A stretch of DNA of 50,783 bases. Source: Nitrospira sp. GTDB lineage: Bacteria; Nitrospirota; Thermodesulfovibrionia; Thermodesulfovibrionales; Dissulfurispiraceae. Location: the NCBI GenBank assembly GCA_002634385.1, contig NSJL01000027.1, positions 1 to 50,783 on the forward strand, read 5' to 3'. Shown in pieces: positions 5,443-25,063 of this stretch. Position 1 is the stretch's first letter. The number at the start of each line of letters is the position of its first letter. Both the position numbers and the translations under genes were made by a program. A model generated the notes under the pieces. It was not told the DNA's origin and searched no databases. It worked only from the letters and a program-made list of their open reading frames with translations.

Positions 5443-6468
5443 TCAGGGACGATATTCCCTGGCTGTCTCAAGAAATATCTTAATATTCTCAATGGGAACT
5501 GAATGAGGCAGGTCACAGGCCGGCATTGCCATGTACCCTCCCCCTGATGCAGCACTGGATATACACGCGAGAACAGCATCTCTTACGACTTTGCTGTCCT
5601 TATCCATTAATACTGCTGTCGCGGAGACATTCCCTGCAAGAACACAATTCCCGTGGAAGGCCTCCTTGGCCTTTTTCATGTCCACCATGGCATCAAGGCT
5701 TATGCAATTGGCACCTGAAGTACTTACCAGGTCAAGCCTGTCGCTCATCTCACCGCACATATGCAGCAGGCTTTTTGTGCCGGTCGCTTTCAGCTCCGAA
5801 AAAACGGTTTTCAAGGGCGGCAACCCCAGTTCTCCAAACCGCGCCCTTGAAATAAGACTTGCAGAACTCAACGAATCAGCCATTGAAATCATCTGAATAG
5901 TAGTATCGTCAATTAAGGGTTTATAGAAACGGAGCACCATCTTTGCGGCAAACTCGGCAACGGCCTTCACCAGGTCCTTGTTTTTGTGGATAGCTCTCAT
6001 AAGTTGTTCTATGCCGCAGAGTTGGCCTGCCAAAATGAAAGGGCCCCATGTTGTCGTCGTCACGACATACTTATTCCCCACATTCTTTGAGACGATCCTC
6101 GTTGCCTCTCTGATGTTGTTGAGAACAGGGTCGGTATCTATTCTCGACAGGTCAAGTTTTTCAAGATCAGAGATAGATCCTACTATCGGTTCCACGTCAG
6201 GCGCCCCCACCTTCCTGTAGGTGATGGGCGCCCCCAATGCTGCTACCAAACAGTTATTCAGCCCTGATCCTACATAAACGATATCAGATTGCAGGATGTC
6301 GGCCATTTCTGTTTGAATTTCTGCCATCCGTACGGGATTCCTTACCAACTTTTCCGGCTCTTCGCCGTAGTAACTGTAAGTCCAGACCCCTCCTCCGAAG
6401 ATCGAGGAGGGCATCCTATCGGTCTTCACAAAATCATAGGCCGAGAAAACAATCTCTTTTCCGTTCAT
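5443..6468 (-). CDS. Uroporphyrinogen decarboxylase (URO-D) family methyltransferase, MtaA/MtbA/O-demethylase MT-I-like (divergent paralog)
   Basis: 341 aa from the ATG at 6468 (GGAGGTGAGA RBS). URO-D/MtaA family architecture. Last gene of the long minus-strand cluster. Confidence 0.6.
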   Translation of the reverse strand: MNGKEIVFSAYDFVKTDRMPSSIFGGGVWTYSYYGEEPEKLVRNPVRMAEIQTEMADILQSDIVYVGSGLNNCLVAALGAPITYRKVGAPDVEPIVGSISDLEKLDLSRIDTDPVLNNIREATRIVSKNVGNKYVVTTTTWGPFILAGQLCGIEQLMRAIHKNKDLVKAVAEFAAKMVLRFYKPLIDDTTIQMISMADSLSSASLISRARFGELGLPPLKTVFSELKATGTKSLLHMCGEMSDRLDLVSTSGANCISLDAMVDMKKAKEAFHGNCVLAGNVSATAVLMDKDSKVVRDAVLACISSAASGGGYMAMPACDLPHSVPIENIKIFLETAREYRP

Positions 6469-6519
6469 GGTCTCACCTCCATGCAAGAGTCTTCACATAG
6501 GAAATGCATTCGCGGTTCA

Positions 6520-8205
6520 TTATGCAGCCGGCCCCAGGATAGCCTTGAGGTCTGCATCAGGTGTGGTAATGGCCATTACGTTGAAGTTTTTGATAAGCAC
6601 TCCCAGCACCCCCGGACTTATGAAGGCCGGCAATGACGGACCAATACGGATGCCCTGGATCCCGAGGTGGAAAAGCGAAAGCAGGACGGCCACGGCCTTC
6701 TGCTCGTTCCACGAGAGGACCATGGAAAGGGGGAGATCGTTTACTCCCACGCTAAAGGCCTTTGCAAGGGCGACTGCTATCTGAATAGAAGAGTAGGCGT
6801 CGTTGCACTGGCCTACGTCCAGGAGCCTCGGGATGCCGCCGATATCGCCCAGCTTCTTGTCGAAGAAGCGGAACTTGCCGCATGCCAGAGTCAGCACAAC
6901 GCAGTCCTTGGGCACTTTTTCGACGAAATCAGAGTAATAATGCCTTCCCTTTGTTCCACTGTCGCAGCCGGCAACAAGAAAGAAATGCCGAATACTCTTG
7001 TTCTTCACCGCCTCTATTACCGTGTCGGCAGCACTGAGGATCGCATTCCTTGCCGCACCGGTCAGCACAGAGCCCAGGTCCTCATCTTTCAAAAAGCCGG
7101 GCAGGGAAAGGGCCTTCTTTATAACGGGGGCAAAATCATTCTTTGTGATATACTGTATGCCGGAACTCCCAACAACGCCCGTCGTAAATACCTTGTCTTT
7201 GTAGGAATCGAGGGGCTTCTGGAAGCAGTTGGTGGACAGGACGATAGCTCCGGGAAACTGCTCAAACTCCTTGTTCTGGTTATGCCAGGCTGTCCCGTAA
7301 TGGCCGTAAAAGTGAGCGTATTTCTTCAGGCCGGGATAGCCGTGGGTGGGGAGCATCTCTCCATGCGTGTAGACATATATTCCCTTTCCCTCGCTCTGTT
7401 TGAGTATCTCTTCAAGTTCCTTAAGGTCATGTCCGGAAACGAGAATAGCCTTTCCTTTCTTGCGCCCAAGGGGTACCGTGGTAAAGACGGGATCACCGTA
7501 AGTGCCGGTGTTGCCTTTATCGAGCAACTCCATCGCCCGTATGTTTATTTCTCCGCATTTCAGGGCCAGCCCTACCCAGGCATCCAGGGAGAGATCCTTC
7601 CTGGTCATGGACGCCAGCATTTCGTGGAAAAAGGAATATATGGCGTCGTCGGTCCGTCCCAGGGTCCGGGCATGGCCAGTGTACGCTGCCACGCCTTTTA
7701 AGCCGAACAGCGTAGTACTCCGCAGGGATAGGACGTCAGGGTCCAAAGAATCGGGATTGCCGGGTCGATGTACCTGACCTTGCCAGGGCAGGACGCCATC
7801 ACTCGAAAAGAGGCCAAGGTTTTGAGCCTGCTTGAGCATTCCCTCGCGGCTTTTTTCTGGCAGGAAATTCGCCGGACCCTCCGCAAACGCGGTTTTCAGA
7901 CTCGCGGCCCGCAGCTTTTGTATCAGGCCGTCCTTGAGCTCGGCGCACCTTTTTATACATGAAACAAAAAAGTCAGGGTTGAAATTGACATTTGTAGCCG
8001 TTGAGAAAAGCGCATCCACCGTGTATTCATCCACTTCCCTGTCGGTTATCCCGGCTTTCCTGCCCTCAAGCGCAACCACCGAAAGTCCCTGCAGCGAATA
8101 GACAAGCAGATCCTGAAGATCTGATACTTCCGGAGTTTTTCCGCAGGCCCCGGTCGTCGTGCATCCCGTTCCATTTGCTGCTTTTTCACATTGATAGCAA
8201 AACAT
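6520..8205 (-). CDS. hcp: Hybrid cluster protein / hydroxylamine reductase
   Basis: Starts MFCYQCEKAANGTGCTTTGACGKT (canonical Hcp N-terminal Cys cluster). 561 aa, matching Hcp length. Confidence 0.85.
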   Translation of the reverse strand: MFCYQCEKAANGTGCTTTGACGKTPEVSDLQDLLVYSLQGLSVVALEGRKAGITDREVDEYTVDALFSTATNVNFNPDFFVSCIKRCAELKDGLIQKLRAASLKTAFAEGPANFLPEKSREGMLKQAQNLGLFSSDGVLPWQGQVHRPGNPDSLDPDVLSLRSTTLFGLKGVAAYTGHARTLGRTDDAIYSFFHEMLASMTRKDLSLDAWVGLALKCGEINIRAMELLDKGNTGTYGDPVFTTVPLGRKKGKAILVSGHDLKELEEILKQSEGKGIYVYTHGEMLPTHGYPGLKKYAHFYGHYGTAWHNQNKEFEQFPGAIVLSTNCFQKPLDSYKDKVFTTGVVGSSGIQYITKNDFAPVIKKALSLPGFLKDEDLGSVLTGAARNAILSAADTVIEAVKNKSIRHFFLVAGCDSGTKGRHYYSDFVEKVPKDCVVLTLACGKFRFFDKKLGDIGGIPRLLDVGQCNDAYSSIQIAVALAKAFSVGVNDLPLSMVLSWNEQKAVAVLLSLFHLGIQGIRIGPSLPAFISPGVLGVLIKNFNVMAITTPDADLKAILGPAA

Positions 8206-8397
8206 TTTATTTCCTCCCGATACCCTTTGTTATCTGCAGGCTGAGCAGATTAGGAAAGGGAAAGTTACGCTTTGTACAGTGTGAACATAGTCACTTCAAT
8301 TGAGGTGATTATGCTCACACAGGCTCATTTTTGAGCCTTCACCTTCATTACCTACTGTTGCCGATTCCCTTCGACGCTCGGACCCTTAACGCTTTCC

Positions 8398-9468
8398 TTA
8401 GTAAGCTCCATACAGGGCAGCCGCCTTCACGAGGGCCTTTATGTTCTCGGGCGGAACGTCGTGGTGAATTTCACATCCGGCCGATAATAGATATCCCCCT
8501 CCCGGCATACCGATCTCCAGGCATTTCTTCGCTTCTGCCATTACCTGCTCAGGGGTTCCGAACATGAGGGCCGCATTCGCCTTTGACACGCCGACGTTCC
8601 CTGCAATAGCCACCTGTTTCCCGTATTTCTCTTTTGCCCATTTCAGGTCGACCGAGTCGTGAAAAGCAACGCATATCGGCTGGATTTCATTGACGATCAA
8701 ATCCAGGAATGGAGTAGCGTTTTCACACTGATGGTAAATATACGGGGCCCTTATGGCGTCACGGATTTTTCTGTGGTAAGGGACGACGAACTCGGCATAC
8801 TGAGGCACGCTGACCGCCTCATCAACCATCCCGCCCTCAACAGTCGCTATTGCAATGGCCCCCGCTTCGAGCATGGCCTTGGCAAAAGCGATCGATGTCT
8901 GGGTGCAGAGCTCAAGCAGGTCATGGATAAAAGACGAATTTTTAGCCATCTCCACATAAAGCCGCTTATAACGGCCTTCGAGAACATCCGCCACCGTATC
9001 CGGAGGTCCGTTCACGAACCCCACGATGGGCACATCGGGATAGTTCTTCTTCAGTTTCCTGATCACGTCCAGGATGACCGGCATCCTTCCGGCCTTGGTG
9101 GGATCGGGGACTGAAAGTTTGGCAAGATCCGCAGGGGTCTTGACGGCCCATTCGCTGACCACGCCCATGCGCATACCGCCGCCGCACTTGAGCATGTAAT
9201 CCAACTTCGAGCCCAAGGCCTCGCCCTCGACCCGGAAATCCACGGGCAGGAAGAAGTTATCAGCCCCGTACACCGTATACTGCTTCTCTATCGACTGATA
9301 GAGCTTTCTCGGATGGCTAAGCCCTTCCTTCCACGTATAGTCCAGATCCACGAAGTCATGCTGGGCGGCACTCTGAAAATAAAGGGCGACGGGTACCCGG
9401 TCCGGTGTTTTAAACGTAAGGGCTGCAACAACACGTTCTAACGGAGTCATTGTGGACATTGTTCTCAC
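8398..9468 (-). CDS. URO-D family methylcobamide/corrinoid methyltransferase (MtaA/CmuA/O-demethylase MT-I-like)
   Basis: 356 aa, typical MtaA-family length and pattern. Starts 7 nt downstream of the corrinoid-protein gene. Confidence 0.7.
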   Translation of the reverse strand: MRTMSTMTPLERVVAALTFKTPDRVPVALYFQSAAQHDFVDLDYTWKEGLSHPRKLYQSIEKQYTVYGADNFFLPVDFRVEGEALGSKLDYMLKCGGGMRMGVVSEWAVKTPADLAKLSVPDPTKAGRMPVILDVIRKLKKNYPDVPIVGFVNGPPDTVADVLEGRYKRLYVEMAKNSSFIHDLLELCTQTSIAFAKAMLEAGAIAIATVEGGMVDEAVSVPQYAEFVVPYHRKIRDAIRAPYIYHQCENATPFLDLIVNEIQPICVAFHDSVDLKWAKEKYGKQVAIAGNVGVSKANAALMFGTPEQVMAEAKKCLEIGMPGGGYLLSAGCEIHHDVPPENIKALVKAAALYGAY

Positions 9469-9475
9469 CTCCTCC

Positions 9476-10114
9476 TTATTTTTCCACTGCGGATTCTACC
9501 CACTTCAGGGCTTCCTTTTCATTGTCACCATAAAAATCAGCCCCTATCTTCTTGCAAAACTCCCAGGAGATCGGTCCTCCGCCGACGCCCACCTTGATCT
9601 TGTCCCGGAGGCCTTCTTCCACGAGTCCCTCCAGGGTCCGCTTCATACTGAGCATCGTCGGCGTCATGAGGGTAGAGAGCATCAGAAAGTCGGGCTTCTC
9701 CTCAGCCACCTTCTCAAGATAATCCTCGATGGGCACGTCACGTCCCATGTCTATACAGGCAAACCCATTTGCCTCCAGCACTATCCTTACGAGGTTCTTG
9801 CCGATGTCATGGACGTCGCCTTCGACAACGCCGATCAGTACCTTGCCTTTCCCTGCCGTTTCGACCTTCATCTTTGACTTCAGGATATTGAAGGCTTCAT
9901 AGAAGGCTTCGGAGCTGAGGAGCATCTGGGGTAGATAGTACTCCTTCTTATCATACTTTTCGCTGACTATTGCCATAGCCGGGATCATACCCTTTTCTGT
10001 TATGATCATCGGGTCGATATTGTCAGCCAAGCCCTGTCTGGCCAGCCTTCCCGCTTCGTCAATGTCGCCTACAACGATGGCGTGGTTAAGGTCTTCGAAA
10101 ATTTTTTCAGACAT
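9476..10114 (-). CDS. Corrinoid (B12-binding) protein of methyltransferase systems (MtaC/MtbC/OdmA-like)
   Basis: 212 aa with an N-terminal helical cap domain. Rossmann B12-binding domain with the DxHxxG motif (GDVHDIGKN) and S.L....M signature. Confidence 0.85.
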   Translation of the reverse strand: MSEKIFEDLNHAIVVGDIDEAGRLARQGLADNIDPMIITEKGMIPAMAIVSEKYDKKEYYLPQMLLSSEAFYEAFNILKSKMKVETAGKGKVLIGVVEGDVHDIGKNLVRIVLEANGFACIDMGRDVPIEDYLEKVAEEKPDFLMLSTLMTPTMLSMKRTLEGLVEEGLRDKIKVGVGGGPISWEFCKKIGADFYGDNEKEALKWVESAVEK

Positions 10115-10153: not shown

Positions 10154-10966
10154 TCACGCCTCTGCCTTGTCTTCTTTCACCTTTACATTGCCACTCCTTT
10201 CTCTTTTAGTGAGCAGGCTTTTGGCCTGTTCAAATGTGCGCTCAAGAATGTTGAGCGTCCCCTTGGTTTCGTCCACATAAAACCCGAAGGTATCCGCGAA
10301 CTTTTTCGTTTCGGCGCTGAGCGTCTCGCGGTCTCCGATTCCCGTGTCAACCATCAGTACCCGCTTATAAGCCGCTTTCTTAAAGATCCATTTGACCGTG
10401 GCGATATCCGGACAGTGAAGTTCCTTTAGCAGCAGCGTATCAGAGTGCTTAAGCCAGCCGGGAGTCACAAACCATGTGCCCGCCTCACGACGGACCTGAT
10501 CCAGGTATTTTTCGGTCCCTCCCAGCACCAGGCACACGCAGTCATCGATCGTACTGCCATCTTTATTCTGCAGCAGTACGATAGGGCAACGGAGATCGAC
10601 CAATTGTTTTTCGATATCGAGGAGTCCATTGCCGCAAAGTCCGTAGCCCAGCACGAGGACGTCACTCTTCTCAGCCAGAATCCTGGCCTGCTCTGCAACC
10701 CCCTCTCTCAGCATAGTCTTGTCCATGTGAAGAGCGACGCGAAGCACCGCAGCCAGAACCTCGAAAGAGAGTGCCGAGTCCGGCAGAAACTCAGCTGCAT
10801 CCTTTATCCTTTTCAGCCTGTTGCCCAGCAACCCATGCAGGGACGCAATGCTGTCTGTCGCAGGACCGCTCTCGACGAAAGTGACTTTCCCGATATCAGG
10901 ATCATGGGAAAGCATATGCGCCATCTCATCTTCGAAAATTTCGCACGTTAAGAGCCCGATTACCAT
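10154..10966 (-). CDS. DUF1638-domain protein (accessory protein commonly adjacent to corrinoid methyltransferase genes)
   Basis: Start placed at the ATG at 10966 (MVIGLLTCEIF..), with a GGAGAGAGGAGGA RBS-like tract upstream. Family assignment is from overall pattern and gene context. Confidence 0.5.
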   Translation of the reverse strand: MVIGLLTCEIFEDEMAHMLSHDPDIGKVTFVESGPATDSIASLHGLLGNRLKRIKDAAEFLPDSALSFEVLAAVLRVALHMDKTMLREGVAEQARILAEKSDVLVLGYGLCGNGLLDIEKQLVDLRCPIVLLQNKDGSTIDDCVCLVLGGTEKYLDQVRREAGTWFVTPGWLKHSDTLLLKELHCPDIATVKWIFKKAAYKRVLMVDTGIGDRETLSAETKKFADTFGFYVDETKGTLNILERTFEQAKSLLTKRERSGNVKVKEDKAEA

Positions 10967-10983
10967 GGCATCCTCCTCTCTCC

Positions 10984-12618
10984 TCACCCCGCAACCTTGA
11001 CGGACTCAAACAACAGACCGTTAGGGCATTCCGCTTCACAACGCCGGCAAGCGGTGCCGTTACAAAGGTCGGAGCGGATTACAATGCGTTCATTCTCACC
11101 CACCCTCTCGATGCGGGCGGCGGCCTCCGGACATTCATTGAGACATTTGCGGCAATTATCACCCAGGCACCCCCCTGCAGGGAAATCAAGAGAGAGTTCG
11201 GTGCCCACGCTGTCCACGACAGTCAGTCCCATAGGACCGATTTCGATGATGTCCCGCTTTGAGATGTGAATCAACTCCGGCGACGGGTGCGGCTGAGGAA
11301 ATTCCTGAATGCCATAGAGAGCGAGCATGCCATTCATCATATGCATCGGCATTCCTTCATCCCAATAGGCCAACTCACAGACATAGGCATTCTTAAATAC
11401 CTTTGAATCTGCGAACATGATGTGCTTGGCGGTGATCGTATCGGCCACTTTCTGGAGCATGTCCAGGAGCTCCGGACGTCTGACGATTTCAGTGGCAAGA
11501 CACAGGCTCGTGTTCCCTGCCTGTATTATCCTGCCTGCCGAGTTAGGAATCAGGCCGACTTTCCGGGCCTTTAAGGGGTCCACGTATGTGCCCGAGGCCC
11601 CTGTCATGTACACAGCGTCCAGTTTCGGCAGTTTTATGCCGACCTCTTCCACGAGTGTCATGTGCCCGGCCCGTATGGCGCCGATAGCCTTCCCCGCCTC
11701 TCGCACATCTTTCTCTGTCAGGTAGATCCCTTCGGTCATGTGCAGTTTTCCGTCGGCAGTACTGATCTTTGGCGGGCCTACCAACCCCGCATCGATCCCT
11801 TCGGCAATCGCGGCGACAACACCCGTGCCGGTAATCCCTTTCGGCTGGCAGTTCGGGGCGCCCTGCAGAACAATCACACCGTCCTTGACCCGGATGCTCG
11901 AACCGGAACGTGCGATGAGATCTGAATTGAGCACACGAATGTCCCAGACTCCGTCGCCGGAGACTAAGTCCGCAATGGCGCCCGGCTGAGCCAACATGCC
12001 GCAGGAGACGTGCTGTCCTTCCATGGCAGGGCCTGCTGCTGCCGAACCCGTCAGTATGTCACCGCCGACCTTGATGGCCATTTCCGCGTTGGTACCATAA
12101 TCTGTGACGATAGCCACCTCATCCTTATCAAGGAGGCCGGTGATATACATCATCGCCAGGGCATCCGCACCGATTTCATGCCTGACTGCCGGCGGCACAA
12201 GGAGTTCCGCCTTGTCGGGCAACTCCAGTCCGATATCGGCAGCCCGGATGACACGGGCAGGCCGCTTGACCGCCTCCGTGATTCCCAGCTTTTTGAGTCC
12301 CCGCTTGCCCGCAAAGGCCAGATCCCTGATTTCCATCCTTTGGAAGAGAGAAAGCTGGATGGGATTTCCGCAGATCGCCACACGCCCCACCTCTTTAAGG
12401 TCGATCGGGAGGGCACGGATGACCTTGTGCACCGCATTGAGAATCAACTTGTGAGTAATGTCATATCCCATTTCAAGACAGAAGTGAAGATGGTCCATAA
12501 CATTTGCCCCCGGCAGAGGGTGGCGGGTCGATATCGCGGTGGCGATGACCCTGCCATCCTCATCAATAGCCTGGGCCCGGAACCCGCTCGTCCCCAAATC
12601 TATTGACAGGCTTTTCAT
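10984..12618 (-). CDS. ramA: RamA-type reductive activase of corrinoid enzymes (ASKHA-fold ATPase with C-terminal 2x[4Fe-4S] ferredoxin domain)
   Basis: 544 aa. N-terminal sugar-kinase/Hsp70-like fold (MKSLSIDLGTSGFRA). C-terminal Cys clusters (CLGDNCRKCLNECP, CNGTACRRCEAECP). Confidence 0.75.
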   Translation of the reverse strand: MKSLSIDLGTSGFRAQAIDEDGRVIATAISTRHPLPGANVMDHLHFCLEMGYDITHKLILNAVHKVIRALPIDLKEVGRVAICGNPIQLSLFQRMEIRDLAFAGKRGLKKLGITEAVKRPARVIRAADIGLELPDKAELLVPPAVRHEIGADALAMMYITGLLDKDEVAIVTDYGTNAEMAIKVGGDILTGSAAAGPAMEGQHVSCGMLAQPGAIADLVSGDGVWDIRVLNSDLIARSGSSIRVKDGVIVLQGAPNCQPKGITGTGVVAAIAEGIDAGLVGPPKISTADGKLHMTEGIYLTEKDVREAGKAIGAIRAGHMTLVEEVGIKLPKLDAVYMTGASGTYVDPLKARKVGLIPNSAGRIIQAGNTSLCLATEIVRRPELLDMLQKVADTITAKHIMFADSKVFKNAYVCELAYWDEGMPMHMMNGMLALYGIQEFPQPHPSPELIHISKRDIIEIGPMGLTVVDSVGTELSLDFPAGGCLGDNCRKCLNECPEAAARIERVGENERIVIRSDLCNGTACRRCEAECPNGLLFESVKVAG

Positions 12619-12622: not shown

Positions 12623-13672
12623 TTAAACCCATACCTTCCTGAAGCCGTGTTTCTTACCGGTTTCGACCATGGTCTGCAGGTTTATCGTCGAGGTCTGCGG
12701 GGGTATTCCACAGCAGGTTGTGAGGACGTCAGTCCCCTTCTCAATGCACTCTATGACGGCTTGCTTGACTTCTTCCGGCTCCCCGAACAGCAGGACCCCG
12801 TTCACATTAATATTTCCACACATGGCGGTGTTTTCTCCCACCGTCTGTTTGGCATAAGCCATATTTACCATGGAGTCAACCGAGATACCCGGCGCCACCT
12901 CCGCCATCCTCGTCAGAAGCAGGTCGTTCTTCCCGCAGATGTGAAGGATTGTGGGCACTGAAATGTTTTCGGTGATGCTCCGGGAGTAGGGCTTGGCAAA
13001 TTCGTCAAACTGTTTTGGACTGATCAGATCGCAGCTGGCAGTGGCATCAACGATCACTACAACATCCGCCCCTGCCTCGACCTGGGCCTGGGCATACTTC
13101 ACGCAGACCTTCTGAGCCCTCTCAATGAGCTCCTTGGTAACGGCAGGCTTCCTCATAATTTCGCGCATGAAGGGGTCTACCCCCCTGACCTGAGCCGCTA
13201 CCATGAAGGGTCCCACGACCATCGAGAGGACGGGTATGGTATCGGGAACCCTCTTTTTGAGGAGCTTGATCGCTTCGAGGACCACCGGCATCCTGCCGTC
13301 TTTATAAGGGTCGGGGTCCTTCACCCTGCTGAAGTCGCCCGTTTCGGACACGGGGGGTTCCTTCACCGGGGGTTGTATATCCAGGCCCTTGTTGCGCCCT
13401 GCGTGATACTCCAGCTCGCATCCCATGGCTTCGGCTTCTATATTGATATCGAAGGGGACACGAACGCTCTCAAAGCCGATGACCCGATGTGCCTCATACG
13501 ACAGGGTAGCCATGAGTTCCGCGTTGGAATGCACTTCCGGCCAGAAAGCCCCGCATGATTTCATCAACTCTATCGTTCCCGTATGCAACGGCTGCGCTAC
13601 CGGTATGCGGTCTACGGGTTGATGGGCCAGGGTGGCAAAAAGTCTTTCCTTCGGAGACATGGTTTCTTTCAT
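12623..13672 (-). CDS. URO-D family corrinoid methyltransferase (MtaA-like paralog)
   Basis: Start at the ATG at 13672 (MKETMSPKERLFATL) with an AAGGAGGA RBS. 349 aa. Ends 4 nt before ramA. Confidence 0.7.
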   Translation of the reverse strand: MKETMSPKERLFATLAHQPVDRIPVAQPLHTGTIELMKSCGAFWPEVHSNAELMATLSYEAHRVIGFESVRVPFDINIEAEAMGCELEYHAGRNKGLDIQPPVKEPPVSETGDFSRVKDPDPYKDGRMPVVLEAIKLLKKRVPDTIPVLSMVVGPFMVAAQVRGVDPFMREIMRKPAVTKELIERAQKVCVKYAQAQVEAGADVVVIVDATASCDLISPKQFDEFAKPYSRSITENISVPTILHICGKNDLLLTRMAEVAPGISVDSMVNMAYAKQTVGENTAMCGNINVNGVLLFGEPEEVKQAVIECIEKGTDVLTTCCGIPPQTSTINLQTMVETGKKHGFRKVWV

Positions 13673-13778
13673 GAAATCCTCCTTTTCGGGGTTCTTGCTT
13701 CTCTCCCTAAGATGAAGCATTGAGAGGACCCTTCTTGTGTTGTGGTTAAGCATTCCTGATTGATCAGCAAAAAAATGA

Positions 13779-17336: not shown

Positions 17337-18203
17337 TTAAAATCCAGCCTTATCCAGAACGAGGGGCACTTTGTCCTCCCAGTGAATGGTATAGATATGA
17401 ACCCCCCGGGATAGATCCCGTAAATCCCTGATCAGACGGGCTGCTATTTCGATACTTGTGTCCACGGGATCGGTGCTCTTTTCAAATGCATCGAGTATGA
17501 ACTTCGGAATAGTAATCCCGGGGATATTCTTGTTCATGAAATGTGCCATCTTCGCGGATTTGAGCAGAAAGACGCCCACAAGGACAGGCACGGATAAATG
17601 CCTAGTTTTTTCAACGAAACCGGCAAACATCTCGATGTCGAAAACAGGTTGGGTCTGAAAGAAATCGGCACCTGCCGCAACTTTCTTCTCCATTTTCATT
17701 ATCTGAAGTTCCAGCGGAGCGGATGACGGGTTCACCGCCGCTCCCAGGCAAAAGGACGGAGAGCCCTTGAGGCGATTGCCCGCCATATCCGTACCGTCCT
17801 CCAGCCCTCGGGCCGCTTTCAAGAGCTGAACCGATTCAATATCGAACACTCCCTTTGCGCCGGGATGGTCCCCCAGGGACTGGTGGTCTCCGGAAAGGAC
17901 GAGGACGTTATTTATTCCCAGGGCTGAAGCGCCTAACAGATCGGATTGCAGGGCCAGCCTGTTCCTGTCCCTGCATACCATCTGAAGTATCGGTTCAAGT
18001 CCCTCTTCTTTTATCAGGAAGGAGGCGGCAAGGGAGCTGAGGCTCATGACGGCGCTCTGATTGTCCGCCGCATTTACGCCGTCGACCCTTCCCCGCAGGG
18101 GATGGAGTATCTTCAACTCTTCTCTTATATCCGTCCCCTTAGGCGGGAGAAAATCCGTTGTAATGACAAATCTTCCTGACTTTAATGCTTCCCTCAATGC
18201 CAT
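17337..18203 (-). CDS. metF: 5,10-methylenetetrahydrofolate reductase family protein (MetF-like, paralog 1)
   Basis: 288 aa, MTHFR-family TIM barrel pattern (FVITTDFLPPKG...VCRDRNR...). Separated by 1 nt from paralog 2. Confidence 0.7.
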   Translation of the reverse strand: MALREALKSGRFVITTDFLPPKGTDIREELKILHPLRGRVDGVNAADNQSAVMSLSSLAASFLIKEEGLEPILQMVCRDRNRLALQSDLLGASALGINNVLVLSGDHQSLGDHPGAKGVFDIESVQLLKAARGLEDGTDMAGNRLKGSPSFCLGAAVNPSSAPLELQIMKMEKKVAAGADFFQTQPVFDIEMFAGFVEKTRHLSVPVLVGVFLLKSAKMAHFMNKNIPGITIPKFILDAFEKSTDPVDTSIEIAARLIRDLRDLSRGVHIYTIHWEDKVPLVLDKAGF

Positions 18204-18204
18204 G

Positions 18205-19107
18205 TTACCCTACGGCTCCTGCGGTGCGGTTTTTTCTTCCCGTAATTTCTGCTTCGTCCAGGATGCGGGGAATCCGGTCGTGCCACGGCGTGGTCATCAT
18301 GAGGTGAACCCCGGAGCAGACAGCCGCGAGTTCCCTTACAAGCCTGACGGTTATATCGATGCTTCTCTTCTCAACATCTCCTTTTTCGAGCTCCTGTAGT
18401 ATCGATTCAGGAATATGCACACCCGCGACGTTTTTATTCATGAAGCGCGCGGAGGCTGCAGATTTCAGAATGAATACCCCTGCAAAAACCGGGATATCAA
18501 GAAAGGCCACCCCCTCCAGGAACCGGACATATCTATCGACGTCAAAGATGGGCTGAGTCTGCAGAAATTCGGCTCCTGCCTCAGCTTTGAGACGCGCCTT
18601 CCCGATCTCTTCCTGAGGTTTTGCCGCGCCGGGGTCGAGGACAGCGCCGAGACAGAAATTCGGTATGCCGTCAAGGCGCTTTCCACCCATGTCAAAGCCC
18701 TTCTCGAGATTCCTCGCTGCCGCCAGCAGCTGGACAGAGTCAAAGTCGAAGACCGGTTTTGTGCCCGGATTGTCCGAATCCGTCGCCTCGTCACCTCTCA
18801 GACAGAGAATGTTCCTCACTCCCAACGCATAGGCGCTCAGAAGCTCTGACTGCAGACTGATCCTGTTTCTGTCGCGACAGGTGATCTGCATTATGGGCTC
18901 TATCCCCATCTCTCTTATCTTCACGCAGGCCGCGAGGGCGCCCATCCTCATATTCGCCCCGGGCATATCAGCGACATTTATCGCATCAACCCTCCCCTTC
19001 AAAAGCTCGATACCTTTTACCGTTTTGTATACAGCTGTGCCTTTCGGCGGGATTACGTCTGTCGTTACAACAAACTCTCCGGATCTCAGCTTTTCCTTGA
19101 ATGTCAT
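18205..19107 (-). CDS. metF: 5,10-methylenetetrahydrofolate reductase family protein (MetF-like, paralog 2)
   Basis: Start at the ATG at 19107 (MTFKEKLRSGEFVVTTDVIPPKG) with a GAGGTGG RBS. Same family as the adjacent gene. Confidence 0.7.
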   Translation of the reverse strand: MTFKEKLRSGEFVVTTDVIPPKGTAVYKTVKGIELLKGRVDAINVADMPGANMRMGALAACVKIREMGIEPIMQITCRDRNRISLQSELLSAYALGVRNILCLRGDEATDSDNPGTKPVFDFDSVQLLAAARNLEKGFDMGGKRLDGIPNFCLGAVLDPGAAKPQEEIGKARLKAEAGAEFLQTQPIFDVDRYVRFLEGVAFLDIPVFAGVFILKSAASARFMNKNVAGVHIPESILQELEKGDVEKRSIDITVRLVRELAAVCSGVHLMMTTPWHDRIPRILDEAEITGRKNRTAGAVG

Positions 19108-19118: not shown

Positions 19119-19991
19119 TCATCTCTCGGGAATAACCCACTTCTTGCTTCTCTGTATATTCTTAAGCCTCATGAGCTGTTCCTCGGCTATCGTAAAGGTA
19201 TGTTCGGGGGCAGGGAATTTGAAGGCTTCTACCTCATCCTTGAAGGCTTTGACCGCTTTCGTAGTCTCAGCCCAGAGATTCACATATTTTTTTACGAATT
19301 TCGGAACAAAGTGTTCATAGAGTCCGATCATGTCCTGAGTGACAAGGGCCTGTCCGTCACAGTGGAGGCCGGCACCTATTCCTATCACGGGGATTTTCAG
19401 CGTTTCCGTAATGATACCGGCGACGCTCGGAGGCAAACATTCTACGGAAAGAGCAAAAGCCCCGGCTTTCTCGCATTCCATAGCGAGGTCGATGAGGTCT
19501 GACGCCTCTTCAGCGGTCTTCCCCATCACGGCAAACTTGCCGTATCGTGACACAAACTGGCGTGTAAGACCGATATGAACCATGGTAGGGATTCCGGATT
19601 CCACTATGGCCCGTGCGATCTTTACCACTTCCGGACCGCCTTCGATCTCTACACCGTCAGCACCTCCTTCCTTGATAAATCGCCGGGCATTCCTCCTGGC
19701 ATCCTCTTCGGTGTTGTAATCCATAAAGGGCATGCAAGACAGGATAAACGCCCGTTCTACGGCATTGGCGACAGCCTTGGTATGATGAATCATCTCCTCC
19801 ATAGTCACCGGGAGGGTATTCTTATATCCCAGTCCGGTCATGCCCAGAGCGTCGCTTACGAAGATGATGTCGATGCCGGCCTGATCGATAATCCTGGCAA
19901 ACGGATAATCGTAGGCGGTCAACATGCTTATTTGTTCGCCCTTTTTCTTCTTGGCCGTGAGAGAAGAAACACTCACCTTGTTTTTTTCCAT
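19119..19991 (-). CDS. panB: 3-methyl-2-oxobutanoate hydroxymethyltransferase-like enzyme (PanB family) with about 25-aa C-terminal amphipathic extension
   Basis: Strong PanB pattern (ISMLTAYDYPFARI..DIIFVSDALGMT..TLPVT..IPVIGIGAG..DGQALV). 290 aa vs about 264 for canonical PanB. The extra C-terminal tail is TIAEEQLMRLKNIQRSKKWVIPER. Confidence 0.8.
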   Translation of the reverse strand: MEKNKVSVSSLTAKKKKGEQISMLTAYDYPFARIIDQAGIDIIFVSDALGMTGLGYKNTLPVTMEEMIHHTKAVANAVERAFILSCMPFMDYNTEEDARRNARRFIKEGGADGVEIEGGPEVVKIARAIVESGIPTMVHIGLTRQFVSRYGKFAVMGKTAEEASDLIDLAMECEKAGAFALSVECLPPSVAGIITETLKIPVIGIGAGLHCDGQALVTQDMIGLYEHFVPKFVKKYVNLWAETTKAVKAFKDEVEAFKFPAPEHTFTIAEEQLMRLKNIQRSKKWVIPER

Positions 19992-20005: not shown

Positions 20006-20563
20006 CTATATGATTACGCTGCTCAGGCTGCTGTGGGGTGCAGGTATAATGGTCGTCATTGTCAGCATGCCGGACTCTTCGATAGCAGCCGTCGCAGCAT
20101 CAAGTGCCGCCTCGACGGAATAAAGCTCACCGGTCAGGGTTACAAAAGCCTTTCCCCCCAGCCCTCTCGCCAAACGTATCTCTATTAGCATTATGTTTGC
20201 CGCTTTTGCCGCCGTATCTGCGGCGATTATGCATGAAGCGATCGAAAAAGTCTCAATAACTCCCAGAGATGCGACTTCCTTCACCTCGGTAGTTCCCCGG
20301 ATGGCCGGGAAGATGCCTTCATGGATGTTCGGGATCAGGAGACGATCGACAATTTGATCTCCACCGATCTGAACTCCAACTTCGATGGATGCTTCCACCG
20401 GGGCGACCAATCCGCAGATGACAACACTGTATTTTCCAGGACAGGTAGGCGTCGCCTCCAATAACTCTATAGGCGCTTTCTTCATCATATAATCACATGC
20501 CATAATTCCGCGTGCAATACTTCTGAATTCTATGAGGCCCAGGGCCTGTCGCGCTTCCGTCAT
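20006..20563 (-). CDS. pduT: BMC-T shell protein, PduT-like (tandem BMC domains, putative [4Fe-4S] site)
   Basis: 185 aa. Two BMC domains. The conserved TCPGK Cys is at the position of PduT C38. Confidence 0.8.
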   Translation of the reverse strand: MTEARQALGLIEFRSIARGIMACDYMMKKAPIELLEATPTCPGKYSVVICGLVAPVEASIEVGVQIGGDQIVDRLLIPNIHEGIFPAIRGTTEVKEVASLGVIETFSIASCIIAADTAAKAANIMLIEIRLARGLGGKAFVTLTGELYSVEAALDAATAAIEESGMLTMTTIIPAPHSSLSSVII

Positions 20564-20575: not shown

Positions 20576-21904
20576 TTACGCTGCTTCGATAACAATCTCA
20601 CCTCCGCCAATCCTCTGAACCCTGCCCGAGACCGATGCGTGGTATTTAGCACCCATATATCCGTCGGGTATATCGGCGATCAGATCGCCCTGCCGGATAA
20701 CATCCCCCTCCTCAACTACCGGGACAGCCGGAGCGCCGATGTGCTGTCGTAATCCTATCTTCACCTGCCTGACCGAATAGGGCGTCTCCTTGAGCGGTGC
20801 AATCTCCTTGTACTTTTCCAGTCCCAAACGGCTCAGCAGTCGTTCTGATGGCACTTTACGATGCTCCATTTCCTGCCTCGCCTTCACTTTGACTTTTTGC
20901 GGTTCATGCCGGTAGCCTCTCTTGGCGAGTTCAGCCCTGATTTCCATGTTTACCTGCCGCGGGGAGAGACCTTGAACACAGGCATAGGTCTCGCAAAGGC
21001 CACATCCGGAGCATGCTGCCGCTGAAGTAACGACATCAGGAGCGACGACATTCCCATAATCAAGAGACCTCATGATTTTGTGGGGCTGAAGACTATGGCC
21101 CAGCAGATACCGTGGACAGAGCTCGGTACAGTAACTGCACTGAGTGCAGGCCGACTTGATCAGACGGATATTCCGCTGTAAGGGTCTGGTCTTTAAGGTG
21201 ATGAGGGGATGGTTCTTCGGCAGCACGAGAAGCATTCCCAGGGTTTTATTGACCGTACCTGAAACATCGAACGTAACCCTGCCCATCATCGGGCCTCCGG
21301 CGATCATCGCATATTCCTCGACTTTTGCACCACCGGCCATCGCTATCACGTCACCGAAAGCAGTCCCGACCGGAACCCTGAAAGTCGCCGGATGTTTCAC
21401 CTCGCCAAGAACTGAAATATGGCGGTGAGTAACCGGAATGCCCCTCTCGGCTTCCGAGATGTTGAAAAGAGTTCCGACATTCTGCACAACCACTCCCTCG
21501 GAAAGAGGGAGATTCCCTTCGGTAATGACCCTGCCCGTTACCTCGTGCACCAATACAAACTCGTCCCCGGCAGGATAGAAATCCCGGAGCAGGAAAAGCT
21601 CGATGTTCTCCTTGCCCGAGATTGCCATCGAGAGACTATCGATGGCGGTTTTATATTTCTTCTTTAGAGCCACTATGCCTTTTGAAGCGCCGACAGAGTC
21701 CATGAGGAGGGCAAGGCCGGCGATTACCGTATCGGCGTGTTTCACCATGAGCTGCTGGTCGGCCTGTGCCAGGGGTTCACATTCCGCCCCGTTGGCAATC
21801 ACCATTTCCGCTTTTGATCCGGATTTGATATGACTTGGGAAGCCCGCGCCTCCCGCACCGATTATCCCGGCGTCTCTCACCCTCGTCACAAGGTCTGTCG
21901 TCAT
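20576..21904 (-). CDS. pduS: PduS/RnfC-like flavo-Fe-S oxidoreductase (BMC-associated; cobalamin-reductase-like)
   Basis: 442 aa. RnfC-type N-terminus (GIIGAGGAGFPSHIK). Two ferredoxin-type Cys clusters (CTQCSYCTELCP; CSGCGLCETYAC). Confidence 0.75.
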   Translation of the reverse strand: MTTDLVTRVRDAGIIGAGGAGFPSHIKSGSKAEMVIANGAECEPLAQADQQLMVKHADTVIAGLALLMDSVGASKGIVALKKKYKTAIDSLSMAISGKENIELFLLRDFYPAGDEFVLVHEVTGRVITEGNLPLSEGVVVQNVGTLFNISEAERGIPVTHRHISVLGEVKHPATFRVPVGTAFGDVIAMAGGAKVEEYAMIAGGPMMGRVTFDVSGTVNKTLGMLLVLPKNHPLITLKTRPLQRNIRLIKSACTQCSYCTELCPRYLLGHSLQPHKIMRSLDYGNVVAPDVVTSAAACSGCGLCETYACVQGLSPRQVNMEIRAELAKRGYRHEPQKVKVKARQEMEHRKVPSERLLSRLGLEKYKEIAPLKETPYSVRQVKIGLRQHIGAPAVPVVEEGDVIRQGDLIADIPDGYMGAKYHASVSGRVQRIGGGEIVIEAA

Positions 21905-23507: not shown

Positions 23508-23521
23508 CTTTCACCTCCCTC

Positions 23522-23842
23522 TCAAAATCTGACAGGCGGAGCCTGCCAGATGGGAACTTTCTGGAACTGCGCCTCGCCCGAGAGCTCCACGGTGTCCACG
23601 ATACCGATGATGACCGCGTCCACCGGCCTGTCCTTGGTGATCCCCGTTTGCCGGGCTGAGCTCTCCAGGGTATAGAGGACCACATCATTCGTTCCCGCTC
23701 CAACGGCATCCACGGCTATTTCATATCCTCCGCACGGCTCCCCTTTGTAGTCCACTTTCTCGACAATCAGAAACTTTGAACCGGCCATGGTCTGTACCCG
23801 CTGGTCGCACACGACCGTTCCTACAACCTTTCCTAAGAGCAT
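23522..23842 (-). CDS. BMC vertex protein (BMC-P; EutN/PduN/CcmL family)
   Basis: 106 aa, MLLGKVVGTVVCDQ...VDAVGAG pattern. Confidence 0.8.
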   Translation of the reverse strand: MLLGKVVGTVVCDQRVQTMAGSKFLIVEKVDYKGEPCGGYEIAVDAVGAGTNDVVLYTLESSARQTGITKDRPVDAVIIGIVDTVELSGEAQFQKVPIWQAPPVRF

Positions 23843-23858
23843 CGGACCGCTCCTTTCC

Positions 23859-24218
23859 TTACCGCGTTATTTTCTTTGATTCTTTATGTTCAATAGCCTT
23901 TTGCTCGTTCTGCTCGATCATCTCCCAGTAATCCCTGCCCCTGCCCAGCGGCAGTGCGATGTCCACATTATCATGCGGCCGCGGGATCAAATGGACACTC
24001 ACTACATCGCCCACCTTTCCGGCCGCTATGCCCCCTGCCTCAAGAGCGGCCCTTACCGCCGCCACGTCGCCCCTGACAATTGCAGTCACATAACCGCCGC
24101 CGATCTTCTCATAGCTAACCAGTTCAACCTTTGCAGCCTTCACCATTGCATCAGAGGCCTCCACCATTGCGGCAAATCCCCTTGTTTCGATCAGTCCCAA
24201 AGCTTCCGTCGTACGCAT
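23859..24218 (-). CDS. BMC-H hexameric shell protein (PduA/EutM-like) with about 25-aa C-terminal tail
   Basis: [54 protein letters not shown]...VHLIPRPH, canonical BMC-H. Confidence 0.85.
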
Positions 24219-24301
24219 TCGTATTCTCCTTTCCTTACCTGTTTCAGGTTATGTATGCACGCTCTGCAGAGCGGCGAGTAAATGTTTTTCCTGCCAATGC
24301 C

Positions 24302-25063
24302 CTATGACTCTTTTTTCGACGGGGAATTCTCCCTGCCTGTTATCGACTCAAGAGCGCGGTGAACCGCATCCATGCCGACCTCCACGTCCCTCTCTTCACC
24401 ACAAAAGTAAAGCCTGCCGAAGGCACCGAAATTTCTGACCTCTATCAATTTGATATCAGCCGCTTTTTCAGCCTCATTCGCCGCGAAGTTGGCATATCCG
24501 GCCGGATGCACCTCAAGAATGTACAGCGTTTCTCCCGGCAAAATGTAGTTTGCACTTCGGCTCGTACGGTTTATCAGCTGGCACTGATAATCGTGAACTC
24601 TTCGTATCAGTTGACTTGTCAGTATTCTCGGCTTAAGCCTGTCCATCTCCGTTTTCTTCAAGGCTTCAAGAATCGCGTTTCCGGATTGGAGTACCTGGCC
24701 CTGATCGCTATGGTGGAACTCCAGCATTCCAAACGCCCTCTCCACCACCTGAGCGCCGGGCATCACGTCTGTGGCTTTGACCGCTACATCTGTCAGCCTG
24801 TTAATCTCGATGCCCGGCGCTATCTCAACAATTATCGACGCCTGCCCCACTATGGGAAGATATCCCCGTGCGGTTGCTGCAACCTGCGATGCCAATTGCG
24901 GCTGCATCTGGTCAATAAAGACATATACCCTTAATTCAATGGCACCTCCATCCGGCTGTTCGGTACTTATGGCGGACTGATATTTTGGTATCTCCGCAGC
25001 ACCTTTCGTACTCGATTCAGTAATCTTTATCCCTGACGTGGGATGTGACTTCGAAACTGCCAT
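24302..25063 (-). CDS. BMC-T shell protein with permuted tandem BMC domains (PduB/EutL-like); first gene of the long minus-strand cluster
   Basis: 253 aa. Internal duplicated BMC-like halves. AAGGAGG RBS 10 nt before the ATG at 25063. The AT-rich promoter region lies upstream (25064-25735). Confidence 0.55.
   Translation of the reverse strand: MAVSKSHPTSGIKITESSTKGAAEIPKYQSAISTEQPDGGAIELRVYVFIDQMQPQLASQVAATARGYLPIVGQASIIVEIAPGIEINRLTDVAVKATDVMPGAQVVERAFGMLEFHHSDQGQVLQSGNAILEALKKTEMDRLKPRILTSQLIRRVHDYQCQLINRTSRSANYILPGETLYILEVHPAGYANFAANEAEKAADIKLIEVRNFGAFGRLYFCGEERDVEVGMDAVHRALESITGRENSPSKKES

Follow-up and report, generated by a model that had tools for sequence, protein, structure and literature searches.

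A candidate metabolosome for anaerobic methyl-group catabolism: a microcompartment shell joined to corrinoid and tetrahydrofolate genes in a Nitrospirota locus

Why would a bacterium place the genes for a protein shell in line with those for corrinoid-dependent methyl transfer? The question is raised by contig NSJL01000027.1 (assembly GCA_002634385.1) of a Nitrospira sp. that is represented by a metagenome-assembled genome (MAG). The window, that is, the whole stretch of 50,783 nucleotides analysed here, contains 19 consecutive open reading frames (ORFs) between positions 5443 and 25063, all on the minus strand. A block for bacterial microcompartment (BMC) shell proteins, a CoA-acylating aldehyde dehydrogenase (AldDH) and PduS- and PduT-like proteins lies head-to-tail with a block for corrinoid methyl transfer and tetrahydrofolate (THF) metabolism. 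A preliminary description of this DNA had proposed just such a union of a metabolosome module with a corrinoid/THF module; Pfam and NCBIfam profiles bear out the co-directional run and its domains gene by gene, with one shell protein reassigned (see below), and the union recurs in other phyla. This conservation across phyla argues that the join is functional rather than accidental. The reading we favour, at a little short of even chances, is a distinct metabolosome type for anaerobic methyl-group catabolism, wherein methyl groups would pass from a methylated substrate to a corrinoid, on to CH3-THF and CH2-THF, and then, unloaded as an aldehyde by a paralog of PanB, to the AldDH of the shell.

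What makes the locus unusual is in part what it lacks. None of the 19 genes matches PduL (PF06130), Fe-ADH or any other alcohol dehydrogenase family in Pfam, and none encodes any of the signature enzymes known to generate aldehydes (diol dehydratase, EutBC, GRE, class II or DeoC aldolase, aminotransferase), as had been suspected; nor does Pfam detect the B12-dependent diol dehydratase PduCDE or its reactivase in the window. The 40 window ORFs scanned with Pfam include two methylenetetrahydrofolate reductases (MTHFRs; metF) and a formate-THF ligase family member (FTHFS; fhs), yet no folD-type domain, and those outside the locus are unrelated housekeeping genes. The absence of folD thus stands, and the label of a complete C1 module does not, all the more so as FTHFS reaches 505 bits against an NCBIfam equivalog cut-off of 652.

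Which enzyme, then, might generate an aldehyde? The PanB-like protein had been named as a possible signature partner, and this proposal has gained strength. The protein exceeds the profile cut-offs for PanB (PF02548; TIGR00222 at 294 bits, cut-off 208) and shares fold and length with the solved PanBs of E. coli (1m3u) and M. tuberculosis (1oy0), which it matches at 190–197 bits. It differs from them, however, by seven substitutions (E. coli numbering G44S, S46A, D84C, K112E, P141R, T143F and V179S) that are common to the window protein and all 30 sampled members of its clade (59–95% identity); the ordinary PanBs in the same match list all keep G-D-S, D84, K112, P141 and T143. A 2026 study states that D46, D84, K112, E114, H136 and E181 are strictly conserved in the pocket of ketopantoate hydroxymethyltransferase (KPHMT; PMC13488298). 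All six are kept in 143 of the 150 best family representatives, taken from a 50%-identity library in which the PanB-like clade collapses, so that clade size cannot be read from this count. In the window protein, the equivalents of D45, E114, H136 and E181 are retained, D84 is replaced by Cys and K112 by Glu. Pantothenate (pan) genes are missing from the 40 scanned window ORFs and from the related loci; the neighbours are MTHFR and the methyltransferase (MT) termed MT-II. Together, these features make the protein a candidate signature enzyme, a putatively neofunctionalised paralog with the KPHMT fold rather than a normal PanB.

The genomic context of this clade is strikingly constant. Its members always lie within corrinoid-methyltransferase clusters, with or without a shell, and directly precede MTHFR, often overlapping it, in eight of nine architectures. 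Where a shell block is present, it sits directly upstream of the PanB-like gene in every undisrupted locus. The exception in both respects is a transposon-disrupted locus (L012; L-numbers denote loci of relatives retrieved for comparison), in which no MTHFR adjoins the gene, and a transposase and an MT cassette separate it from the shell block. In a neighbour-joining (NJ) tree of PanBs without support values, the Cys84 clade is monophyletic, its basal branches carry shells and its crown mixes shell-bearing with shell-less loci. As the AldDHs are monophyletic, too (see below), this suggests an old association between PanB paralog and shell that was later lost in places, or else shells encoded elsewhere in those genomes. 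A metagenome scan with the clade alignment returned mostly ordinary PanBs, and clade members only in L017, L018, L019 and L029.

How widespread is the combination? An AldDH scan of a genome collection recovered three other Nitrospirota MAGs (L005, L006 and L007; AldDH 84–89% identical) with the same order from the first shell gene through FTHFS. A fourth Nitrospirota relative (L015/L016) shares the order at 64–81% identity per gene; it has the shell and no corrinoid cassette in the locus. Other lineages, a Thermoleophilia genome and no fewer than three more, hold orthologous sets, the search for which started from the PanB-like protein; their component identities to the window amount to 41–83%. 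Abbreviating the shell proteins to Tdp, H and P, the corrinoid protein to CoP, aldehyde:ferredoxin oxidoreductase to AFOR and a response regulator to RR, a 4.6-Mb Thermoleophilia genome (L012) reads Tdp-H-P-AldDH-BMC-T-(URO-D_b-RamA-DUF1638-CoP-URO-D_c)-transposase-PanB-like-MT-II-FTCD_C, the last being an FTCD_C/cyclohydrolase-type gene in place of FolD. L013/L014 read sensor kinase-MtrH-Tdp-H-P-AldDH-BMC-T-PanB-like-MTHFR-AFOR-Tdp-H-CoP-URO-D-RR-URO-D-RamA-DUF1638-CoP, with a second Tdp and BMC-H interleaved between MTHFR/AFOR and the corrinoid genes. In L103/L106, the MT cassette lies upstream of the shell (RamA-DUF1638-CoP-URO-D-MtrH-FTHFS-Tdp-H-P-AldDH-BMC-T-PanB-like-MTHFR). PduL was not seen in L012, L013, L015, L103 or L106.

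The AldDHs of all PanB/MT-linked loci form one clade among ~120 BMC AldDHs (NJ tree, no bootstrap). A clade member predicted from this tree alone (P0154) indeed lies in an MtrH-Tdp-H-P-AldDH arrangement (L104), and the nearest outgroup checked (L105) belongs to a BMC locus of PTAC/aldolase-II type. The latter (L105:4140-14614; PTAC-H-H-P-AldDH-PduS-T-P-P-aldolase II) has a molybdopterin oxidoreductase and a RACo-type corrinoid activase ahead of it, and so is another neighbourhood of corrinoid activase and BMC. Shell-less versions exist as well. L099/L100 (GAF regulator-PanB-like-MTHFR-MT-II-URO-D-FTHFS-URO-D) correspond to the THF operon of the window minus its shell block, L101 reads URO-D-CoP-PanB-like-MTHFR-MT-II-TRAP transporter, and L010 reads CoP-CoP-URO-D-MT-II-URO-D-DUF1638...PanB-like-MTHFR-RACo-CLC channel. 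In the last of these, the gene for a CLC-type chloride channel directly follows that for RACo (L010:13989-15290), an adjacency that hints at methyl halides as its substrate.

A few observations on individual relatives may be added. Loci without the RamA-DUF1638-CoP cassette carry a DUF2284 gene after the last MtaA-family gene (L015:13841-14425, L016, L100:7263-7847 and L007:15904-16428), accompanied in L100 by DUF3786 and DUF5981; these proteins may be part of the corrinoid machinery or take its place. The PduS gene of L005 (11627-12960) is broken into three ORFs. L012 has a split URO-D gene, a frameshifted AFOR gene (12918-14638) and, between the MT cassette and the PanB-like gene, a DDE transposase. 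These features of the two loci (in L012 at 3176-4224, 8598-9767 and 12918-14638) are signs of decay or of assembly error.

Can the shell block itself be expected to build an aldehyde-processing compartment? BMC-H and BMC-P genes are clustered, as in microcompartment loci in general, and joined by two BMC-T genes. The first shell gene, previously called PduB-like, is by its profile matches (NCBIfam CcmP, CsoS1D_N) a BMC-Tdp of CcmP/CsoS1D type, that is, a double-stacking trimer with a gated pore; its orthologues in L005–L007, L012, L013 and L015 are 60–92% identical. The AldDH is an acylating member of PF00171, with the BMC AldDHs 5jfl, 6gvs and 4c3s as its closest solved structures, and from the alignment with 5jfl we take the Cys of NNIPCIAEKE to be the catalytic one. 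The predicted encapsulation-peptide-like helix at its N-terminus was confirmed: an amphipathic helix of ~25 residues (SPVESLVEKALDRI), followed by a linker of ~70 aa, recurs in the orthologues and in Clostridium PduP, although its identity as an encapsulation peptide was judged by eye. With PduP of the Clostridium PDU locus the AldDH shares 50% identity. The PduS-like protein combines a NuoF-type NADH/FMN domain, two [4Fe-4S] sites and RnfC_N; it shares 42% identity and synteny with the PduS of Clostridium PDU loci. The PduT-like trimer has a pore cysteine in TCPGKY, and the Cys of CPGKY is kept in all PduT-like orthologues and in Clostridium PduT. The trimer is presumed to be a [4Fe-4S] electron conduit, and together with the PduS-like protein it forms the only candidate for redox recycling in the locus.

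On the side of methyl transfer, the families needed to move a methyl group from a substrate onto THF are represented, albeit some by divergent members. Four MtaA/CmuA-family paralogs, 23–31% identical to one another, have an HxC...C motif that we take to be the Zn site; these MtaA-like URO-D proteins could transfer methyl groups in either direction, and need not all be substrate-specific methyltransferases (MT-I). The corrinoid protein has B12-binding domains and the DxHxxG motif, and the activase clears its family cut-off by a wide margin. Between the genes of these two, DUF1638 is a constant member of the methyltransferase cassette in L012, L013, L103 and L106. Methyltransferase c has a 72% identical orthologue in the Thermoleophilia locus, and orthologues of methyltransferase d directly follow FTHFS in L007 and L015/L016. 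MT-II scores just below its PRK07535 cut-off (249 vs 259 bits), and we count it as an MT-II; its closest solved relatives are 4o0q, presumably the O-demethylase MT-II of D. hafniense, and then AcsE/MeTr. The two MTHFRs, MetF1 and MetF2, are 50% identical (tblastn), and MetF1 is very divergent from solved MTHFRs. The FTHFS orthologues are 60–81% identical; given the divergence of this protein, its activity should not be taken for granted.

These parts suggest a route whose steps as far as CH2-THF rest on homology, and whose later steps are inferred. MtaA-family methyltransferases would transfer methyl groups from methylated substrates, most likely methoxylated aromatics or methylated thiols, to the Co(I) form of the corrinoid protein, a state that the RamA activase would maintain. 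MT-II would pass the methyl group to THF, and MTHFR would interconvert the resulting CH3-THF with CH2-THF. From CH2-THF, the PanB paralog might unload a C1 unit at the formaldehyde level, thereby restoring THF; the unit would leave most simply as formaldehyde, otherwise as a hydroxymethyl adduct. Made and confined in a shell of BMC-Tdp, BMC-H, BMC-P and PduT-like trimer, the aldehyde would be oxidised to an acyl-CoA by the peptide-bearing, PduP-type AldDH at the expense of CoA and NAD+; in the case of formaldehyde, the product would be formyl-CoA. As no alcohol dehydrogenase is present, PduS- and PduT-like proteins may replace one in NAD+ regeneration: the flavoprotein would reoxidise NADH, and the electrons could exit through the Fe-S pore of the trimer. 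The RnfC-like subunit of Acetobacterium woodii serves MTHFR (Bertsch 2015, cited in PMC6436200), and so the PduS-like protein might serve MTHFR as well. In relatives without a shell, or alongside it, a tungsten-dependent AOR-type AFOR would oxidise the aldehyde instead. The most specific version of this scheme, a "C1 metabolosome" in which a repurposed PanB releases formaldehyde from CH2-THF for conversion to formyl-CoA inside the shell, with electrons leaving via PduS and PduT, is a tentative proposal that we think rather unlikely to hold in every part.

Acylating AldDHs interconvert formaldehyde and formyl-CoA, and the equilibrium constant for formaldehyde and THF is ~3x10^4 M^-1. At equal CH2-THF and THF, this would leave tens of micromolar free formaldehyde, and a drain by a low-Km AldDH is therefore thermodynamically conceivable. 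PanB uses CH2-THF as formaldehyde donor, and a THF-independent reaction with free formaldehyde is also cited (PMC7770189). AOR-type AFORs, mutually 43–57% identical, are present in L013, L012 and shell-less L099. They score 348 and 300 bits as AOR vs 211 and 151 bits as FOR; we thus discarded the idea of a formaldehyde-specific FOR. An aldehyde oxidiser, be it shell-bound AldDH or soluble AOR, repeatedly accompanies non-canonical PanBs, whichever methyltransferase supplies the methyl group, and since AOR-type AFORs accompany the module in L013, L012, L099 and L049 (see below), the aldehyde seems to arise on the THF/PanB side rather than from the shell module.

The PanB family holds further departures from the canonical pocket. 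In L097/L098 (9129-13191), a sister clade with Thr 84 and Glu 112 is found in the order MT-II, PanB-like, MTHFR and MTTB-superfamily methyltransferase, with no shell nearby; the MTTB gene implies that the PanB-like/MTHFR pair also serves demethylation of the quaternary-amine type. A third non-canonical clade (S44 A46 T84 H112 K141 K143), 43–51% identical to the window protein, comprises L026, L028, L030, L036, L037, L042, L043, L048, L053, L055, L057, L062, L063, L076, L081-L083, L088 and L090. It occupies a highly conserved BMC locus without AldDH (e.g. L063:6746-11633), in the order UlaD-type decarboxylase, BMC-H, Tdp, BMC-P, BMC-H, PanB-like, SDR and sugar ABC transporter, often with 2-oxoacid dehydrogenase E1/E2, a UlaE-type epimerase and an aldo-keto reductase. 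By gene content this looks like a sugar-acid microcompartment, and it has no match in the BMC catalogue text that was compared (PMC8217296). Its HUMPS-family gene was considered as a hexulose-phosphate (formaldehyde) synthase and dismissed, as it scores better as a UlaD-type decarboxylase; with this gene and a UlaE-type epimerase nearby, the locus gives no support for formaldehyde. A fourth group with the signature S-A-S-E-K occurs as tandem copies in L047:1-4400 (PanB-BMC-H-Tdp-P-AldDH-like, the AldDH being distant) and L049:4695-10555 (PanB-PanB-MTHFR-like...AFOR, of AOR type).

How well does the proposed route withstand scrutiny? Several findings weigh against it. Only the AldDH bears a recognisable encapsulation peptide: judged by domain limits, obvious terminal extensions are lacking in all the other proteins encoded here, including the corrinoid protein, RamA and the methyltransferases, and the C-terminal helix of the PanB paralog was rejected as such a peptide on finding the same helix in ordinary PanBs of its subfamily. 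Encapsulation of the PanB-like protein, MTHFR and the corrinoid system is hence hypothetical. The AldDH is 54–59% identical to many AldDHs of other BMC types, which makes it a generic PduP-type enzyme with no visible preference for formaldehyde, and no formyl-CoA-consuming enzyme (Frc, PduL) is found in the locus. Nor does oxidation via free formaldehyde, independent of FolD, bring any evident gain in energy. L012, L013, L103 and L106 lack PduS, and both the PanB and the AldDH tree are NJ trees without support values. Lastly, three of the four shell-less architectures (L010, L097 and L101) have no aldehyde-oxidising gene nearby, which would be easier to reconcile with a product that is not toxic, for instance a 2-oxoacid adduct, than with free formaldehyde.

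This last point leads to an alternative that we consider unlikely, yet by no means negligible: the PanB paralog could be a true hydroxymethyltransferase acting on another 2-oxoacid, for instance converting pyruvate to 4-hydroxy-2-oxobutanoate, so that CH2-THF is drained to biomass or a fermentation product and an aldehyde arises only further downstream or is unrelated. The four retained pocket residues (of six) keep enolate chemistry on a 2-oxoacid plausible, Arg in place of P141 could take over carboxylate binding, and L101 encodes a TRAP carboxylate transporter. Moreover, the third PanB clade, which lies in a sugar-acid BMC without THF genes and resembles a plain aldolase, indicates that the fold can serve as an ordinary 2-oxoacid aldolase, a further argument against formaldehyde release. 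Yet the loci contain no conserved decarboxylase, transaminase or dehydrogenase to turn a 4-hydroxy-2-oxoacid into an aldehyde, and C1 assimilation accounts neither for the position of the shell block, immediately upstream of the PanB-like gene in all undisrupted loci, nor for the co-evolution of the AldDH with that gene. Somewhat less probable still, shell and AldDH might handle the substrates' own aldehydes, such as vanillin and syringaldehyde, or an aldehyde left after demethylation, with THF and PanB enzymes merely recycling the carrier. AOR-type enzymes accept aromatic aldehydes, and those of L012, L013 and L099, closer to AOR than to FOR, should be broad-range; multiple MT paralogs suggest multiple aromatic or thiol substrates, and methoxylated aromatic aldehydes are likely common in the peat, palsa, soil and groundwater that were sampled. 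What speaks against this is that the shell block tracks the PanB-like/MTHFR pair and no particular methyltransferase: the set of substrate methyltransferases varies (URO-D a/b/c/d, MtrH-type, MTTB in the sister clade), whereas the PanB-like protein is constant. Besides, PduP-type enzymes are known for C2–C4 aldehydes.

Two further explanations dispense with the aldehyde as the link between the modules. The shell might enclose Co(I) corrinoid chemistry that is sensitive to oxygen and oxidation, with PduS acting as a corrinoid reductase via PduT and the AldDH left to act as a scaffold or to balance cofactors. In PDU organelles, PduS reduces cobalamin, and here a corrinoid protein and its activase are encoded in the same operon. 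The gated pore of BMC-Tdp could let large cofactors through, a proposal made for Tdp proteins in PMC8217296. We nevertheless regard such a protective or redox chamber as improbable: the same relatives that lack PduS have corrinoid genes, the corrinoid protein, RamA and the methyltransferases have nothing at their termini that resembles an encapsulation peptide, the same MT cassette occurs without a shell in L010, L101 and L097, and L015/L016 have a shell with no corrinoid cassette in the locus. Alternatively, two independent modules might simply be neighbours under shared regulation, metabolically uncoupled. The shell-less THF/MT operon of L099/L100, the occurrence of PduP-S-T in ordinary PDU loci and the larger internal gaps of the window locus (72, 106 and 192 nt) are compatible with this, but adjacency in five or more divergent lineages despite changes in gene order, among them interleaved shell and MT genes, a monophyletic set of AldDHs and only 14 nt between the PduT-like and PanB-like genes make mere neighbourhood the most improbable of the readings considered. 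We continue to favour methyl-group catabolism through a PanB-derived aldehyde.

How does the locus relate to known microcompartments? The PDU locus of Clostridium sp. BSD9I1 (L008), by Pfam a textbook operon with PduCDE, GH, L, O and F, has its PduP, PduS and PduT in the same order as the 42–50% identical AldDH, PduS-like and PduT-like proteins of the window, and the encapsulation helix and pore Cys are common to both. In contrast, the window has no PduCDE, reactivase, PduL, PduO, PduQ or PduB; it has a CcmP-type BMC-Tdp, and the flanking enzymes are those of THF/corrinoid methyl transfer. Also close are the MIC loci (metabolosomes with incomplete core) and other AldDH loci without assigned function in the BMC catalogue (Sutter et al. 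2021, PMC8217296), which share an AldDH with encapsulation peptide in the absence of PTAC, alcohol dehydrogenase or a recognised signature enzyme, and further the PduS/PduT pair with its pore Cys and a CcmP-clade Tdp. MIC6, for one, is described there as having a CcmP-clade Tdp, a PduT-type Ts and an AldDH with encapsulation peptide, in anaerobes. In the main text of the catalogue, the terms corrinoid, methyltransferase, pantoate, tetrahydrofolate and Nitrospir* do not occur; its type descriptions (ARO/BUF2 excerpts, FRAG1-8, GRM6, HO, MIC2/3/4/6/7, MUF2/3 and SPU1-7, the comparison being confined to the text of these) name no corrinoid, folate, URO-D, MTHFR, FTHFS or PanB families, its Pfam enzyme table does not list PF02548, PF01208, PF02219 or PF01268, and the portion of its tree data examined yielded no Nitrospir* entry. 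To this extent, the earlier statement that the locus matches no described BMC type stands. Full-text literature searches likewise returned no paper linking a microcompartment to the corrinoid/THF/PanB enzyme set; an Antarctic-lake and a Thermacetogenium paper that mention both microcompartments and corrinoids were set aside as precedents, their BMCs being unrelated. Under the logic of the catalogue, the locus counts as an incomplete-core metabolosome, whose signature module would be new.

The methyl-transfer half resembles three-component corrinoid systems for O-demethylation and for methyl transfer from methyl-thiols, such as the O-demethylases of Desulfitobacterium and Acetobacterium and the Mta/Mts systems of methanogens, with which it shares the DxHxxG corrinoid protein, a RamA-type activase, MT-II and the HxC...C of the MtaA family; as in the window, metF and FTHFS for THF recycling stand alongside in clusters for lignin O-demethylation. 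We know of no link between any of these systems and a microcompartment or a PanB paralog. The window cluster, unlike them, starts with shell, AldDH and PanB-like genes and is without folD in the window. A shared logic is found in DmpG/DmpF pairs and in aldolase BMCs (PVM, MUF, MIC4), where a metal-dependent enzyme of aldolase type, acting on a 2-oxoacid, feeds its aldehyde to an acylating dehydrogenase without accumulation. Rather than DmpG or a class II aldolase (PF00596), the window enzyme is a PanB TIM barrel, a fold that we assume to belong to the ICL/PEP-mutase superfamily, tied to C1 units bound to THF.

Are the two blocks expressed together? Orthologue alignment places the true starts of MetF1 (~19107) and URO-D_b (~13672) downstream of the longest-ORF starts, so that apparent overlaps of 22 and 44 nt are really gaps of 11 and 106 nt. 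In gene order, the junctions measure 83, 16, 14, 13, 12, 14, 11, 1, 25, 72, -1, 106, 4, -4, 39, 7, 192 and 33 nt: most are short, as the preliminary description had said, and four are sizeable (72, 83, 106 and 192 nt). A terminator scan and folding of each gap detected no hairpin followed by a T-run in any of them; minus-strand matches of the scan all fell within coding sequence, gap hairpins lacked a T-run, and internal intrinsic terminators were dismissed. The expected AT-rich promoter region is present as a leader of GC 0.42 with six sigma-70-like sites, as compared to 1.8 expected, the best being 25398-25370 and 25292-25264 on the minus strand (10/12 each). Enriched promoter-like sites and gaps free of terminators make co-transcription of all 19 genes a plausible prediction, least of all secure across the structured 192-nt gap upstream of hcp. 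A cobalamin or THF riboswitch in the leader was searched for and rejected (no Rfam match at the gathering threshold or E<=1). Coordinates of all features are given in Table 1.

Table 1. Features of the locus and its upstream region, in the order of the minus strand from the divergent regulator
Feature	Position	Strand	Basis
GAF-domain regulator, 755 aa	25736..28003	+	Pfam GAF/GAF_2
670-nt AT-rich leader/promoter region	25064..25735	-	between divergent regulator gene and first shell gene
BMC-Tdp shell protein, CcmP/CsoS1D type	24302..25063	-	NCBIfam CcmP 266 bits; Pfam CsoS1D_N + BMC
BMC-H hexamer shell protein	23859..24218	-	PF00936 99 bits; EutM-like (NCBIfam)
BMC-P pentamer vertex protein (EutN)	23522..23842	-	PF03319 92 bits
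CoA-acylating AldDH, PduP type, 529 aa	21918..23507	-	Aldedh (Pfam); NF011927 645 bits
PduS-like flavin/Fe-S oxidoreductase	20576..21904	-	Complex1_51K/SLBB/Fer4/RnfC_N; rnfC/PrdC-like (NCBIfam)
PduT-like tandem-BMC trimer	20006..20563	-	PF00936 x2, 143 bits; eut_PduT 121 bits
PanB paralog	19119..19991	-	Pantoate_transf PF02548 326 bits
MTHFR paralog 1 (MetF1)	18205..19107	-	PF02219 127 bits; longest ORF to 19140
MTHFR paralog 2 (MetF2)	17337..18203	-	PF02219 121 bits
Methyl-corrinoid:THF methyltransferase (MT-II), pterin-binding TIM barrel	16505..17311	-	Pterin_bind PF00809; PRK07535 249 bits
MtaA/CmuA-family methyltransferase a	15395..16432	-	URO-D 238 bits; TIGR01463 254 bits, over cut-off
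Formate-THF ligase (FTHFS), divergent	13779..15395	-	PF01268 541 bits, full length
MtaA/CmuA-family methyltransferase b	12623..13672	-	URO-D 270 bits; longest ORF to 13822; MtaA 4ay7 215 bits
RamA-type ATP-dependent reductive activase of corrinoid proteins	10984..12618	-	TIGR04270 707 bits (cut-off 500); RACo domains + Fer4
DUF1638 protein	10154..10987	-	PF07796 118 bits
Corrinoid (B12-binding) protein, DxHxxG motif	9476..10114	-	PF02607 + PF02310; sequence GDVHDIG
MtaA-family methyltransferase c	8398..9468	-	URO-D 204 bits
Hybrid-cluster protein (Hcp)	6520..8205	-	Prismane 506 bits; NF003658 752 bits
MtaA-family methyltransferase d	5443..6486	-	URO-D 172 bits

The divergent GAF-domain protein is a probable substrate sensor. 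Its orthologues adjoin the locus in L005, L006 and L007 (67–83% identity), weaker or partial copies are found in L016 (51%) and L015, and a GAF protein directly precedes the PanB-like gene in shell-less L099. A perfect 14-bp hairpin, GTTGTGTATGCAAA...TTTGCATACACAAC, lies in the 72 nt that separate MT-II from the first MtaA-family gene (16433-16504, minus strand), a gap that folds at about -22 kcal/mol; with no T-run after it, the hairpin may act in RNA processing or stability or, as a palindrome, bind a protein. The hcp gene sits between two methyltransferase genes behind its strongly structured gap (-58 kcal/mol). As none of the related loci retrieved shows hcp, the gene is probably a passenger and has a control region of its own. 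Between 25000 and 32111, GC content falls to 0.42–0.47, compared to 0.52–0.60 elsewhere. This stretch contains the promoter of the locus and the genes for the GAF regulator, a DUF134/sigma-70-region-4-like (HTH) protein, a Nitro_FeMo-Co-type protein and a UvrD-like helicase; it ends at a tRNA gene (32038-32111) and could mark the border of an island gained by horizontal transfer.

What would such a compartment mean? For genome annotation, the PanB paralogs are an example of systematic error, in that they pass the PanB equivalog threshold despite two altered residues among the conserved ones of the pocket. They would found a new family of signature enzymes, with at least three further non-canonical clades, two of which lie beside shell genes. 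If confirmed, a naturally occurring compartment that retains formaldehyde and yields formyl-CoA would be of interest for engineering synthetic C1 assimilation. The loci derive from anaerobes of peat, palsa, soil and groundwater (Nitrospirota, Thermoleophilia and others), where carbon and electrons come in large part from methoxylated lignin units and methylated sulfur compounds. If the C1-metabolosome version of our reading is true, these organisms would oxidise methyl groups anaerobically and independently of folD, formyl-CoA would be a physiological product of a PduP-type enzyme, and theirs would be the first BMC linked to corrinoid/folate C1 metabolism. To our knowledge, every metabolosome characterised or proposed so far handles compounds of two carbons or more (ethanolamine, diols, choline, sugars, aminoacetone, aromatics); a shell tied to corrinoid and folate C1 enzymes would extend the biology of microcompartments to one-carbon metabolism.

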